A DNA stretch of 64,000 bases from Waddliaceae bacterium. GTDB lineage: Bacteria > Chlamydiota > Chlamydiia > Chlamydiales > SLFE01. The position numbers and the translations under genes were made by a program. The notes beneath the pieces were generated by a model. It was given only the letters and a program-made list of their open reading frames with translations. It made no database searches and had not been told where the DNA came from. Each line of letters opens with the position of its first letter. The stretch's first letter is position 1. The DNA lies in the NCBI GenBank assembly GCA_963771045.1, contig CAVYRW010000004.1, positions 1,856,001-1,920,000 of the forward strand, written 5' to 3'. This document shows positions 19,795 to 28,295 of the stretch, piece after piece.

Positions 19795-20674
19795 ATGCGA
19801 ATACCACCAACTTTATGCGGAGTACTGGCTTTATTCTTTTGGTCCTTAACGGCCACAGTACAGTAGAGCTCTATGAAATACCCACTTTCCAAATGCTTTT
19901 TTTTAATTTTTCCGCAGGGTTTGCCATCTCCTGTATTTGGGCGACTTTTCTGAAGCAGTGGACAAGTATTCTCAATCTGCCGTTTAGCGTTTGGGCTGTA
20001 GGAATCCTCGGCCTCTTTTGCAATGTATCGGCCTATACAACAGCCTTTAAACTGGCTCCTGCCGCCCAGGTGGACCTCATCTACTATCTTTGGCCTCTTT
20101 TTACAATCTGCCTAACGCAAATACTTCAGCCGCTATTTTCCGGAAGTTATATCGCCGGCGCTCTTTTAGGGTTTGCAGGAGTTTTTTTTCTGATATTCAA
20201 CGAACCAAAGACAAGCAACTCTTTCAGGAAAGCCTTATGGGCTATGGCTATGCGATTTTTGCCGCTCTCAGCTGGACCGGCTATATTATCTTTTCCAGAA
20301 GGCATCCCAATGCTCCCCCGTATACAATTGGGCTTTGCTGCGGAATCGCCGCCATTTTATCGCTGATTTGCCACCGCAATTTCGAATCCTCCGTGTCAAT
20401 GAATCCGAGCCACTGGGGACTCTTATTATTTTTAGGAAGCTGCATTACAGGAACGTCCTTCGCTCTTTGGGATTATGGCGTCAAAAAGGGAAATGTCCGT
20501 TTGCTCGGCGTTCTCTCTTATTTTACCCCAATCTGGTCGATCCTTTTCCTTGTGATGAGAAACCGCGCGGAATTTTCTCTCTACCTTATCGTTTCCACTT
20601 TGCTTGTCGTGATTGGAAGCTCATTTACCCTTATTTACGAATATAAAAGATCTTGGAAAAGGCTCAAAATATGA
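19795..20674 (+). CDS. EamA/DMT family transporter (YddG-like; frameshifted)
   Basis: Multi-TM protein with TLCGVLALFFWS, APAAQVDLIYYLWPLF and WDYGVKKGNV.LLGVLSYFTPIWS; stop overlaps the next start. Confidence 0.82.
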
Positions 20675-21831
20675 TCAGTTTAAGGAATCTAACTTTCACA
20701 CCGCAGGAATATGAACGAAGAGTCGAATCGCTCAGGCGCAGAATGGCTAAAAGAAATTTGGACGCTGTCATGCTGAGCGATCCGGCAAACATCGCCTATT
20801 TAACAGGATATTTCACCACCGGCTACGGAACTTTTCAGTCTTTAATCATTACCTCTCAGCGCGCCTGGATGGTGACCCGTCTTTTGGAGGAGTCCAATGT
20901 CATCACCAGAACCTGGATCGACCTCACCCGCCCCTATCTCGATACCGAAGATCCTCTTGAAGTGGTGAAAAAATCATTCAAAGAATTTAATTTTCAAGGA
21001 AAAACTCTCGGCATTGAATCCCAATGTTTTTTCCTTCCCATGCATTTTCAGGAAAAAATAAAGGATTGCCTAAGACGAATATACGATTGAAGACTGCACA
21101 GGTATTGTAGAAGAAGGGGAGGATTATCAAATCCGAACAGGAAATCGGTTTGATGGAGGAAATCGCCGAGATTACGGAAAAGTCTATGCTCGCAGGACTA
21201 AAAGCGGTCAAAGCCGGCGTCAATGAAAACGATATTTCGGCCGCTATCCACCACGCTATGTACAGTTCGGGAGGCGAGTTTCCCGCTGTGGCACCTTACA
21301 TAACATCAGGTCCAAGAACTCTGATCGGCCATGCCACATGGGAGGGAAGAAGCATAAAAAAGGGCGACTGCGTTTTCATCGAGCTGGCGGGATGCAAAAA
21401 ACGGTATCACACCGCCATGATGCGCACCCTTTTTATCGGGGATCCGCCAAAAGAATTACTCGAAGCCGAAAAGATGGTCAAGAGGGCGCTAAACGAGTGC
21501 AAAAAAGCGATGAAACCCGGGGTCCCCATCGAAAATATTGACTCGATTAGCCGGGACATTATCGCCGACAATACAATCGGCGCCACGCAGATCACACGGT
21601 CGGGCTATTCAATCGGCATCGCATTCGCCCCGAGCTGGGATGAGGGGCATATCCTGAGTTTCAAGCAAGGGGAAAAGACTCCGATTCAGGAAAATATGAC
21701 ATTCCACCTAATCCCCTGGCTGCAGCTTCCGAAACTCTTTATGGTGATGGGCCTTTCCGAAACCGTCCATGTAACCCCTGAAGGAGCCAAAAGCTTTTTC
21801 AATCTGGAGCCCGGGTCTGATAATCAAATAG
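20671..21831 (+). CDS. doeA: Ectoine hydrolase-like M24/creatinase-family protein (DoeA/EutD; frameshifted)
   Basis: LTF...EY.RR...R..M....D...SDP.N..YLTGY, IELAG...RYH and RSGYSIGIAF.PSW.E as in DoeA/EutD; clustered with eutB, eutC and doeB. Confidence 0.75.
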
Positions 21832-22805
21832 TTTTTCCCAACCTTTTCCCGCGGGCTTTTTTATAAGCAAGATTGGCGATCGCCGTATCCTGGGCCCCTG
21901 TTCCCGTCAAATCGCAAAGGGTCATATCTTTAGGATTTCTCTTCAGTTACGCCGTTTACCAGAAATGATCTCCCCGATTTCCCGGATAGGAGTTGAATCA
22001 TTGATGATATTTTGCCGATAAGCGTGATGCAATTCTCCAAGCCGAAGGCTTTGAGTCTTGCCTATCGCAGACGATATGTTGAACTTTGCTGAAGACTTCG
22101 GTATGAAGCTCCTGCTTATCTTCGGCGTCCGCTCCCATTGATGTGATATGCAGGCCGGGCCGGATCCATTCCGATTTGATATAGGGTTTTTTCGAAGGGG
22201 TCGAGGTAATGAGAATATCCGAAGTTTCGACCAATTTCCGAAGATCGTCCTCTCTTTGTCCTTTAACCCCCAGCTCTTCGGACATCTTGTGCGCAAATTT
22301 TTCCGAATGCTCGGGCTCTAGGCTGTAAACATATAACCTATCGAAGGGACGGACCAGCTTCAAAGCGCGCAATTGATACCCTGCCTGCTTGCCGGCTCCA
22401 ACGATCCCTACGGTTTTCGCTTCAGAATTTGCCAGGTACTTTGATGCGACTGCCCCCGCGATTCCCGTTCTGATATCTGTCAGGTAGCCATTGTCGAGAA
22501 GAAGAGCTTCGGGCATGCCGGTTTTTGAGTTGAAAAGAACCATGAGGCCGCTGCCGCTGTCAAGGCCGATTTTCGGATTGTCGAAAAATCCTGTCGACAT
22601 TTTAACGGCAAAATAGTCAAACCCTTTGATATAGGCCGATTTGACATCGATCTCTCCGTTGTTTTCCCGTCACATCAAGCCGCTGCACAGGCGGCATGAC
22701 CACTTCATCTTGCGCCAAAGAGGAAAACGCATTTTCAATTTCTTTCAGCTCCTCTTCCCCAATAAAGACGCATTCTTTCAAGTCTTTTTCCGTCAATATC
22801 AACAT
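21824..22805 (-). CDS. eutC: Ectoine utilization cyclodeaminase-family protein EutC (frameshifted)
   Basis: ILTE.DL, V.MPP..RLD, GEIDVKSAY..G...FAVK.S.GFFDNP..GL.S.SGLM, LLLDNGYLTD.RT and CDLTGTGAQD. Confidence 0.85.
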
Positions 22806-26080: not shown

Positions 26081-27007
26081 ACATGTCGATAAAAACTGCC
26101 GCCGCATTTGCCCCCGCCACTGTTGCGAATCTCGCCTGCGGCTTCGATGTTCTGGGGTTGGCTTTGGAGTCGATCGGCGACATCGTAAAAGTAAAAACAA
26201 AAGACACTGCCGGCATCTCCATAAAAAACATCGAAGGAGATGGCGGAAAGCTGCCCCGGGAGGCGGAAAAAAATACAGCCGGGATTGCGGCAGGCGAATA
26301 TCTGAAGAAATTGAATAAAGAAATCGGAATTGAAATCGAGATCCAAAAAGGCATTCCCCTCTGCAGCGGCCTGGGATCCAGCGCCGCCAGCGCGGCGGCG
26401 GCCGTCTATGCTGCAAATGAACTTTTCGGCTCCTCCTTGCCGAAAGAAGAACTTCTCGTCTTCGCTCTGGAGGCGGAAAAAACAGTGGCAGGAGCCCCTC
26501 ATGCCGACAATGCCGCTCCTTGCCTTATTCGGCGGGGTGACTCTGATCCGCGGCAGTGAAATTTTAAGCCTTCCCTTTCCCGAAAACCTGATCGTCATCA
26601 TTGCCCATCCCGAATATGAGCTCAATACAAGAGACAGCAGAAACGTTCTCCCGGAAAACATCCCTCTTCAAGACGCTGCAAAACAATGGAGCCACCTGGG
26701 AAGTTTAATCGTCGGCTTCTGCATGCAAAACACCGCATTGATTGGCCGCTCTCTAAAAGATCATATTATCGAGACCCATAGGGGCCCCCTGATCCCGGGA
26801 TTCGACGCTGTTAAAAATGCTGCTCTCGACGCCGGAGCCCTTGGATGCTCCATAGCGGGAGCGGGCCCCTCGCTCTTTGCCATGTCCGACTCCCCTCAAA
26901 CCGCTCGAAAAGTCGGCGAAGCGATGAGGAGCGCCTTTAAAACAAAGGGATACCCTTGCAATATCATACAATCTAAAATCAGCAAAACAGGATGCAGGCC
27001 GCTATGA
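26077..27007 (+). CDS. thrB: Homoserine kinase (frameshifted)
   Basis: APATVANL.CGFDVLG, IP..SGLGSSAASA, HADN.AP.L.GG and GAGPS; start overlaps the doeB stop. Confidence 0.92.
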
Positions 27008-28295
27008 AGTTTTTCAGCACAAACGATGCTTCGAACCGGATTTCTCTCAAAGAAGCTGTGCTGCATGCCTATCCCGAAGATAAGGGACTCTATCTGCCGA
27101 CCGAAATTCCCCGCCTGCCGAAAGAATTTTTTGACAATATCTCCAATCTTTCCTTACAGGAAATTTCGTTCCAGGCAGCCAAAGCCCTGATCGGGGAAGC
27201 CCTTGCCAAGCAGCAATTGGAAGAGATGATCAACGAGGCCATCAATTTCGATGCGCCTTTGATTCCCCTAACGGATTGCGCATTCGATTTTGGAACTGTT
27301 CCATGGCCCCACCCTGGCCTTCAAGGATTTTGGAGCCCGCTTCATGGCCCGCCTCATGAGCGCCTATACTCGGGAAGACAAGGAGAAGCTCACCATCCTT
27401 GTCGCTACTTCGGGAGATACCGGCAGCGCTGTCGCCCAAGGCTTTTATCAGGTGCCCGGCATCGAGGTGATGGTCTTTTATCCACAGGGACAAGTGAGTG
27501 AAATTCAAGAAAAGCAGTTCACAACATTGGGAAAAAATATCACCGCATTCGAGGTGAAAGGGACTTTCGACGACTGCCAGGCGCTCGTTAAGGAAGCCTT
27601 CTTAAACCTTGAGCTCAACAAACTCAGAGGTCTCACTTCCGCCAACTCGATAAACATCGCCAGGCTGATTCCTCAGACATTTTATTATTTTTACGCCTAC
27701 GCCAGGCTCAAGAAAAAAACGATGTCGTCTTTTCCATTCCTAGCGGAAATTTCGGCAACTTAACCGCCGGCCTGATCGCGAAAAAGATGGGACTGCCTGT
27801 CTCGAAATTTATCGCTGCCACAAATATCAATGATGTCGTCCCCAAGTACTTGAAAACAGGCCAATTCGAACCCGGGCTGTCCAAGCATACCCTCTCCAAT
27901 GCCATGGATGTAGGCAATCCCAGCAACTTCGCCCGCATGAAAAGCCTCTACCGCTCCCACAATATGTCAGGCGACATCTATGGAGCCTCGTTTACCGATG
28001 AGCAAACGCGCGAGTGCATCAAAAAAGTCTACGGCGAAACCGGATACATTCTCGATCCTCACGGCGCCATCGGATACCTCGGTTTGCAGCAGTATCAAAA
28101 ATCCCATCCATGCTCCGGCATTGTCCTCGAAACCGCCCACCCCGCCAAGTTCCTCGATATCGTCGAACCCATCATCCACGAAAAAATCCCCATCCCCGAG
28201 CGCCTTGCAGAAACTATGACCCAAGAAAAAAAACCGTCATAATCGACCCCTCCATCGAAGCCATTTTAAGCTGGCTCGGAGCCCCCCAATCCTGA
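27004..28295 (+). CDS. thrC: Threonine synthase (frameshifted)
   Basis: ELFHGPTLAFKDFGARFMA, ATSGDTGSAVA, SANSINIARL, PSGNFGNL, SNAMDVGNPSNF and TAHPAKF. Confidence 0.94.

Follow-up and report, generated by a model that had tools for sequence, protein, structure and literature searches.

How a chlamydia could feed a homoserine kinase when no enzyme for making homoserine is found in its genome is the question raised by a cluster of eight genes in a 64,000-nucleotide stretch of Waddliaceae DNA (GenBank assembly GCA_963771045.1, contig CAVYRW010000004.1, positions 1,856,001 to 1,920,000), hereafter the window. The cluster combines (i) eamA and doeA, (ii) eutB and eutC, and (iii) a gene for a pyridoxal-phosphate (PLP) enzyme followed by doeB, thrB and thrC (Table 1), i.e., genes of the type used to degrade the osmolytes ectoine and hydroxyectoine together with those for homoserine kinase and threonine synthase. 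With a probability of roughly 0.55, we consider that this bacterium, in which no homoserine dehydrogenase (Hom) was found, makes threonine from ectoine, likely obtained from its host, the PLP enzyme turning diaminobutyrate (DAB) straight into homoserine. The genome containing the window (G000) amounts to 2.57 Mb in 5 contigs, mostly in one of 2.29 Mb, and is 90.6% complete; two other genomes of the same genus, G001 and G002, were considered with it, completeness ranging from 82 to 91% for the three and being 82% for G002. The organism is a chlamydia, as established by 2 exact matches to a chlamydial 16S primer and by 5 matches to nucleotide transporters (TLC). Gene boundaries in the window were transferred from the intact sister locus of G001, and family scores were taken on the intact G001 copies and compared with curated cut-offs. 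The position, order and strands of the eight genes given in the original prediction were all borne out on re-reading the window.

Both threonine genes exceed their family cut-offs and show the catalytic motifs, namely ThrB with 367 bits on NF002288 (cut-off 194) and 239 on TIGR00191 (168), and ThrC with 296 bits on TIGR00260 (167). The Hom domain (PF00742) was found in none of the three genus genomes, tblastn with five Hom/ThrA queries matched only genes of the amino-acid-kinase family, and the sole PF03447 (NAD-domain) match in G000, a weak one considered as a hidden Hom, looks by eye like Dxr. The genes lysC (short), asd and dapA are present in G000, but the complete lysC-asd-hom route that could have supplied ThrB independently of ectoine stops short of hom, which, like DoeD and a DoeC orthologue, was not found. 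ThrB is left devoid of its standard substrate source because no Hom was found though lysC and asd are present, and its homoserine would thus have to come either from the PLP operon or from the host; yet thrB and thrC are under purifying selection. The aspartokinase is itself a stand-alone protein of 257 aa, devoid of ACT domains and unlinked to asd (G000:C4:872063-872833, L171; the G001 copy is L170), and one of similar length was matched in all three genus genomes.

The position of the PLP gene speaks to the same question. In a comparison sample of 401 Chlamydiota genomes from a single order, one of them unscored for thrB and DoeA, thrB was found in 13 of 400 genomes; in all 11 outside the genus, a Hom-domain gene (thrA) lies directly upstream, whereas in G001 and the window that slot holds the PLP gene and doeB. 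As such, the cluster shares the thrB-thrC adjacency of the thrABC operon of other environmental Chlamydiota, with thrA positionally replaced. As no match was obtained in G000 for ilvC, ilvD, ilvE, metA, metE or metH, and only a 27% match for an IlvG query, 2-oxobutyrate has no evident biosynthetic use and threonine is the only evident outlet for homoserine. Other chlamydial ThrC proteins are 54-59% identical to that of the cluster; in trees whose remaining sequences had been selected as best matches to it, thrC falls among Bacteroidota-like sequences, a single chlamydial thrC clade is not rejected (p-AU 0.36), and no donor is claimed.

The eight genes are arranged in three tightly packed units, whose internal junctions are short overlaps or 1-bp gaps, and co-transcription within each unit may be inferred. 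The single transcript originally read from these junctions can be retained, as a prediction, for PLP-doeB-thrB-thrC but not for the whole cluster, the layout of which corresponds to three predicted transcription units. A promoter scan by consensus matching only returned 17 sigma-70-like sites compared with 8.0 +/- 3.0 in shuffled sequences; a site matching 10 of 12 consensus positions faces eutB in the 81-bp intergenic region, and none was returned inside doeB ahead of thrB.

Whether the upstream genes act on ectoine can be considered enzyme by enzyme. In a 39-row quick tree, DoeA groups with Methylophaga-type ectoine hydrolases, apart from the chlamydial Xaa-Pro peptidases, and not outside the ectoine clade as a less favourable outcome would have had it. 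Its closest database homologues, Methylophaga among them, are named ectoine hydrolase and are 49-55% identical, compared with about 26-29% for canonical EutD, and its best PDB matches are H. elongata DoeA (6twk/6twj). In the motif alignment, the DoeA pattern (Glu, His, Arg/Tyr, His) stands where the peptidases have their metal ligands; together with the tree, this excludes an Xaa-Pro peptidase, and the positions aligned to His238, Glu255, His264, Arg326, Tyr329 and His361 of 6twk, which we take to be the functional ones, are kept. DoeB has TIGR02994 as its sole NCBIfam family match at E<=1e-40 and EutE (6twm/6twl, E~1e-79) as best structural matches; its G001 copy keeps H63, E66, R116, H149 and E214, presumably the zinc-binding His/Glu/His, the Arg and the catalytic Glu of the AstE/AspA fold. 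EutB is above the cut-off of PRK07476 (434 bits versus 413) and below that of TIGR02991 (395 versus 413), with SFKVRG as PLP lysine motif, and EutC is likewise above PRK08291 (428 versus 408) and below TIGR02992 (385 versus 472). With tree, motifs and PDB matches to DoeA and EutE in agreement, the ectoine-type nature of the enzymes is upheld, and DoeA, DoeB, EutB and EutC likely act like ectoine enzymes, though DoeA and DoeB miss the formal cut-offs.

These shortfalls are the starting point of a different reading, in which a related cyclic amidine, or a gamma-substituted aminobutyrate or homoserine derivative of the host, would be opened and deacylated by divergent DoeA and DoeB before the PLP enzyme yields homoserine. 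DoeA scores 489 bits on NF038259 (cut-off 575) and 192 on TIGR02993 (613), DoeB 336 on TIGR02994 (402.7), EutC is under the TIGR02992 cut-off as said, the residue corresponding to Tyr52 in the H. elongata enzyme is displaced by one position, and G000 yielded neither an Ehu/Ueh transporter nor EnuR. We nonetheless regard a non-ectoine substrate as very doubtful: DoeA nests with the Methylophaga-type hydrolases, and a hydrolase of that type, from M. alcaliphilum, has been shown to form N-alpha-acetyl-DAB (PMC7192451). Furthermore, Eut/Doe-type genes of four separate kinds are found together. Among DoeA/DoeB pairs whose context could be read, the nearest, on contig L058 (Anaerolineaceae) and metagenome contig L179, adjoin an over-cut-off EhuB, and short-read contigs of the cluster come from runs labelled salt marsh and soil.

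The DoeA lineage is that of the doeBDAC clusters of Methylotuvimicrobium alcaliphilum 20Z and Methylophaga (PMC7192451; NF038259), the methylotroph and chlamydial proteins sharing the motifs GHATW, RYHTAMMRT, TRSGYSIGIAF and SWDEG. In those methylotrophs, an M20-type DoeB2 acts with DoeD and DoeC and ectoine is also synthesised, whereas the chlamydial cluster has an AstE-type DoeB, then the PLP enzyme, ThrB and ThrC. With the canonical Doe/Eut cluster it shares the DoeA-like hydrolase, the DoeB/EutE-like deacetylase, EutB and EutC, but no DoeD/Atf, DoeC/Ssd, EutA, EnuR or TRAP/ABC importer was found, DoeA is of the methylotroph type, and the predicted end is threonine via homoserine rather than aspartate via the semialdehyde.

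In the canonical route, DAB is converted by DoeD into aspartate semialdehyde and by DoeC into aspartate (PMC3187862; PMC8739950). The statement that the window holds no DoeD, DoeC or TRAP/ABC importer was confirmed and can be extended to the whole of G000, in which DoeD gave no match above 29% identity, the best DoeC match (42%, SSADH-like, elsewhere in the genome) is not an orthologue, and EhuB, UehA, EnuR and EutA gave no tblastn match. A hidden DoeD was dismissed, the two class III aminotransferases of G000 being HemL and an ArgD/AstC-like gene beside astA. Genes of the arginine succinyltransferase pathway (astA, astC-like, astD) were observed in G000 at L014 (G000:C4:1764119-1768258) and L160.

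The PLP enzyme belongs to the PRK08249 family (NF006097, 712 bits, cut-off 600), with the PLP lysine and the core Tyr/Arg/Asp present; 7,727 of 8,000 scored candidates fall in this family at E<=1e-150. Its neighbourhoods were read in the best 80 of 591 loci, from which 67 at 61-74% identity were counted and 13 paralogues (41-46%, no ectoine genes) left out. At 26 of these 67 loci, ectoine genes are found no more than about 10 kb from the orthologue, and none of the 26 holds DoeD, the corresponding genomes giving no DoeD match above 41%, compared with 71% between two canonical DoeDs; two canonical control clusters show the reverse, i.e., DoeD present and PRK08249 absent. In the Bacillales eutD-eutC clusters the next gene encodes a PRK08249 enzyme 64-70% identical to the chlamydial one, DoeD being absent in both. 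On a Klebsiella plasmid (NZ_CP031815.1, IncFIB; L138:1552-10161) the order is ehuBCDA-enuR-doeA-doeB-PRK08249, after which no further catabolic gene is listed, and neither doeD nor doeC is present; both the PLP enzyme and this plasmid DoeA were matched in 28 plasmid records of Klebsiella.

In 9 of the 26 loci, the PRK08249 gene is followed by genes for Hom and an aldehyde dehydrogenase, an order also found on a Priestia plasmid. These Homs are 44-48%, and the aldehyde dehydrogenases 44-51%, identical to their counterparts in a Rhizobium canavanine-type locus, itself identified by gene content alone, and Bacillales and Rhizobium-locus Homs are both above the PRK06270 cut-off. For comparison, the Rhizobium-locus Hom is 28% identical to chlamydial ThrA/Hom, and the aldehyde dehydrogenase of that locus 34% to DoeC. 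In the canavanine pathway of Pseudomonas canavaninivorans, canavanine gamma-lyase forms homoserine by elimination and water addition, with less than 5% 2-oxobutyrate, and a Hom and an aldehyde dehydrogenase oxidise homoserine to aspartate (Hauth et al., 2022; PMC9533460). The canavanine gamma-lyases of Pseudomonas and Rhizobiales and the PRK08249 enzyme share the fold-type-I Cys/Met family and an Asn after the YxR motif, and the Hom and aldehyde dehydrogenase of that pathway are related to those downstream of PRK08249 in Bacillales. The chlamydial enzyme differs in belonging to another subfamily, in an N-linked rather than O-linked leaving group and in having no Gdx exporter or B3/4 protein nearby. 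At 35% identity and devoid of the canavanine locus genes (Gdx, B3/4, ABC), it was rejected as a canavanine-lyase orthologue. Homoserine as the single product of PRK08249 would explain both downstream modules, namely oxidation, predicted to run to aspartate, in Bacillales and ThrB/ThrC in the chlamydia, where no Hom was found.

The Bacillales gene has been given another name. A putative cluster pucR-eutBCD-atf / abgB-thrA-adh is reported for Bacillales by Boas Lichty et al. (2026; PMC13188858), and the gene after eutC, labelled 'atf', is equated here with PRK08249 by gene order only, a search of the supplements having yielded no Bacillus accession for it. The PLP enzyme would then be a transaminase converting DAB into aspartate semialdehyde, which a missed Hom or an unrecognised reductase such as EutC would turn into homoserine. 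That the PLP enzyme stands in DoeD's place at 26 of 26 ectoine loci fits such a role, the semialdehyde could be drawn off in two ways in Bacillales, by Hom and by the aldehyde dehydrogenase, and genomes that are 82-91% complete could conceal a Hom. We judge this quite improbable, given that enzymes of the Cys/Met family bind their substrates by the alpha-amine, and none is known to act as an omega-transaminase. Hom was not found, moreover, in 3/3 genus genomes and in 38 of the 41 genomes of the relatives search, with G000 mostly in one contig; as no Hom was found, ThrB could not be fed by a transaminase that forms the semialdehyde, and with lysC and asd present a reductase would make ectoine needless for threonine. 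The chlamydial gene set argues against the 'transaminase' label of the 2026 paper.

An ordinary gamma-lyase has more to commend it. Here the cluster would degrade ectoines, the PLP enzyme would release 2-oxobutyrate and two ammonia as sources of nitrogen and energy, and ThrB and ThrC would use host homoserine, sharing the operon through co-regulation or accident. By default, members of the methionine/cystathionine gamma-lyase family react in this way, and the best PDB matches of the PLP enzyme are methionine gamma-lyases; in addition, no Hom adjoins the PRK08249 gene in Klebsiella or at several loci of Gammaproteobacteria, some family members adjoin PanB, and the YddG-like EamA could carry amino acids. 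PRK08249 nevertheless keeps the PLP core but has a side-chain pocket unlike that of methionine and cystathionine lyases, with Gly at methionine gamma-lyase Cys116 and Ala at the cystathionine-lyase distal-amine Glu, residues to which we ascribe their presumed pocket roles. Across the family, Asn63 (the residue shared with canavanine lyase) and Glu357 are found in 76/76 members, Glu240 in 75/76 and Asn339 in 70/76. An ordinary gamma-lyase also leaves unexplained the genes for Hom and an aldehyde dehydrogenase that follow immediately at 9/26 loci, the likeness to the canavanine module and the tightly joined PLP-doeB pair in the thrA slot, and no isoleucine pathway was found in G000. Such an enzyme is therefore thought unlikely.

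The preferred reading, i.e., threonine made from ectoine by way of homoserine, retains from the original prediction the genomic link to thrBC, with thrA's slot taken, and the ectoine-type enzymes; what that account lacked is the step from DAB to homoserine, for which the comparative evidence designates the PLP enzyme as the predicted catalyst. The route would run as follows: (i) ectoine and hydroxyectoine enter, possibly via EamA, this being the weakest step; (ii) DoeA would open the ring to N-alpha-acetyl-diaminobutyrate, by homology to the H. elongata and M. alcaliphilum enzymes that have been assayed; (iii) DoeB, by homology to EutE, would remove acetate to leave DAB; (iv) EutB would dehydrate and EutC reduce the hydroxylated form, also to DAB, the chemistry of both being putative in every organism; (v) the PRK08249 enzyme, on the model of canavanine gamma-lyase and judging from gene context, would eliminate the gamma-amine as ammonia and add water to the resulting vinylglycine-ketimine, giving homoserine; and (vi) ThrB and ThrC, whose genes are seen and whose chemistry is established, would complete threonine. 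The acetate released by DoeB could be used by products of ORFs at window 94-3256, which by eye we take to resemble acetate kinase and phosphoketolase. As to the first step, the G001 EamA is YddG-like, with 209 bits on NF050091 (cut-off 300); EamA homologues occur in 14/61 genomes, and copies outside the ectoine locus are 27-39% identical and found in chlamydiae without ectoine genes.

Several points weigh against this reading. The O-linked hydroxyguanidine of canavanine leaves more readily than an amine does, and most gamma-lyases release 2-oxobutyrate. Identity between the PLP enzyme and the Rhizobium canavanine lyase is only 35%, the latter itself falling below the PRK08249 cut-off (286 versus 600 bits), and no biochemistry for any PRK08249 member was found in the literature. 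With 41/67 PRK08249 loci showing no ectoine gene nearby, the family may be mixed in substrate; generic class III aminotransferases occur in 21/26 genomes of the ectoine-linked loci, and the best-80 neighbourhood scan returned no second PLP-enzyme-thrBC operon outside the genus. The acidic residue at the Hom cofactor site was discarded as a guide to whether a Hom is catabolic or biosynthetic, the same Asp being present in E. coli MetL and one chlamydial ThrA. To these are added the incompleteness of the genus genomes, the sub-threshold scores of both DoeA and DoeB and the arrangement in G002, in which aas-eamA-doeA is followed by an unrelated gene. Finally, broad-specificity transaminases can turn DAB into aspartate semialdehyde (PMC3187862).

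A wider proposal can be put forward more tentatively, at somewhat short of even odds: the thousands of PRK08249 proteins would be misnamed as cystathionine gamma-synthases and act as a DAB gamma-hydrolyase (DAB + H2O -> homoserine + NH3), a PLP reaction not met with in the literature searched, defining a second, transaminase-free lower ectoine route across Bacillota, Chloroflexota, Actinomycetota, Gammaproteobacteria and Klebsiella plasmids, which a salt-marsh chlamydia would have put in thrA's place, making threonine only when the host osmolyte is available.

All eight genes are frameshifted in the window, with 1-5 events each, and the 20 frameshifts in total could suggest a decaying, horizontally acquired pseudogene island. 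In G001, however, the eight genes are intact, syntenic open reading frames (ORFs) between aas and the same downstream genes (94.4% DNA identity over 12,074 aligned bases), and doeA is intact in G002 too. Short-read contigs from four public runs of three studies, two of the runs labelled salt marsh and two soil, span between 18 and 30 of the 30 bins; they do not have the extra bases at the 9 frameshifting insertions listed, near-identical pieces (0-4 mismatches) being among them, and they supply the missing base at 28225. Flanking genes are hit as well (9/11 compared, aas included), and dN/dS between window and G001 is 0.06-0.16 across all eight genes (0.12 for thrB, 0.15 for thrC). The window frameshifts are assembly errors, since short-read contigs, those of salt-marsh runs included, do not have the extra bases; none of the outcomes that would have overturned the original prediction was observed. 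The cluster is real, conserved and under purifying selection, decay to real pseudogenes is ruled out, and a pseudogene island is barely credible. Separately, identity to G001 is 95-100% over window 19000-25999, compared with 87-94% in 500-base bins either side, and the ectoine genes have a dS of 0.05-0.18, against 0.31-0.42 in thrB, thrC and aas, which suggests that the two species exchanged the ectoine part recently.

Within Chlamydiota, the ectoine genes were found only in this genus, as first supposed: DoeA in 2/400 genomes (G000 and G001) plus G002, and the PLP orthologue in 2/401, 43 others having matches that are only paralogues at 35-43%. In G002, no match was obtained for doeB or PALP-family genes, the genome being 82% complete; beside its aas-eamA-doeA lies an ORF pair (L017:1-1289) that by eye we presume to resemble IS200/IS605 tnpA-tnpB. 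Three JGI proteins, P0001 (DoeA, near-identical to that of G002), P0241 (PLP orthologue, 85%) and P0122 (ThrC, 76%), are each on a 74,716-bp contig, which makes it probable that a single contig holds all three and that a more distant species has kept the set. A metagenome scan with DoeB returned 9 loci (best 52%) and no chlamydial one. Outside Chlamydiota, ectoine-linked PRK08249 is found in other phyla too, and the enzyme set is not unique to chlamydiae.

No earlier account of ectoine catabolism in Chlamydiota was found in titles and abstracts, subscription journals being outside the search, which agrees with the original prediction. A paper naming chlamydiae and ectoine (PMC11317633) has the latter only in a pathway table, and a text search of PMC13188858 with supplements, PMC5924519 and PMC8739950 gave no mention of chlamydiae. 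Within the same limits, no paper was found linking ectoine to a gamma-lyase or homoserine, or cystathionine gamma with doeA. What is new here is the chlamydial case and the coupling of the PLP enzyme to thrBC in place of thrA, seen only here. If the proposed route is true, a new PLP reaction would be named and a function given to a large enzyme family, the 'atf' label in Gram-positive ectoine clusters would be corrected, and the first ectoine use in Chlamydiota in the literature searched would be at hand. It would also mean that an intracellular bacterium relieves an amino-acid auxotrophy with a stress solute of its host, pointing to a salt-adapted protist. Ectoine is documented in protists (PMC5796728), and the salt-marsh origin of short-read runs fits, but does not prove, an ectoine-containing protist host.

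Table 1. Coordinates of the cluster genes and predicted transcription units in the window.
Feature	Description	Position	Strand	Basis or remark
eamA	EamA/DMT transporter, YddG-like	19795..20674	+	PF00892; adjoins doeA in G001 and G002
doeA	DoeA-type ectoine hydrolase (predicted), methylotroph DoeA_2 lineage	20671..21831	+	ATGA overlap with eamA; 3 window frameshifts
eutC	Cyclodeaminase/mu-crystallin family, predicted imine reductase	21824..22805	-	PRK08291, TIGR02992 scores
eutB	Hydroxyectoine-utilisation dehydratase (predicted), PLP fold II	22805..23772	-	1-bp TAATG overlap with eutC; PRK07476
eutB-PLP intergenic region	Divergent, 81 bp, AT-rich	23773..23853		Sequence
PLP enzyme	PRK08249-family, Cys/Met type	23854..25064	+	NF006097; neighbourhoods; residues
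doeB	DoeB/EutE-like N-acetyl-diaminobutyrate deacetylase (predicted), AstE/AspA family	25066..26080	+	1-bp gap after PLP gene
thrB	Homoserine kinase	26077/26083..27007	+	NF002288, TIGR00191
thrC	Threonine synthase	26992..28295	+	TIGR00260
Unit eamA-doeA	Predicted transcription unit	19795-21831	+	
Unit eutB-eutC	Predicted transcription unit	23772-21824	-	
Unit PLP-doeB-thrB-thrC	Predicted transcription unit	23854-28295	+	

Outside ectoine contexts, PRK08249 genes were observed repeatedly beside PanB and a class I aminotransferase, beside an ArgE/DapE deacylase and beside GlnA-like genes (loci L068, L072, L088; L065, L069, L074, L077; L093, L094, L099, L117), which hints at further substrates. 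Elsewhere in the window, a large coiled-coil protein with many tandem repeats of about 42 aa, 1812 aa long in G001 (L016:3419-8857), is split at window 12351-16912, and two ORFs at window 50685-51788 are presumed, by eye, to resemble an AbiE-type toxin-antitoxin pair. The cluster is flanked at window 9043-11625 and 28354-31965 by fast-evolving or eukaryote-like ORFs (phosphatase-, kinase- and choline-kinase-like by eye), and the flanking orf170 shows a dN/dS of about 1 on 158 codons.

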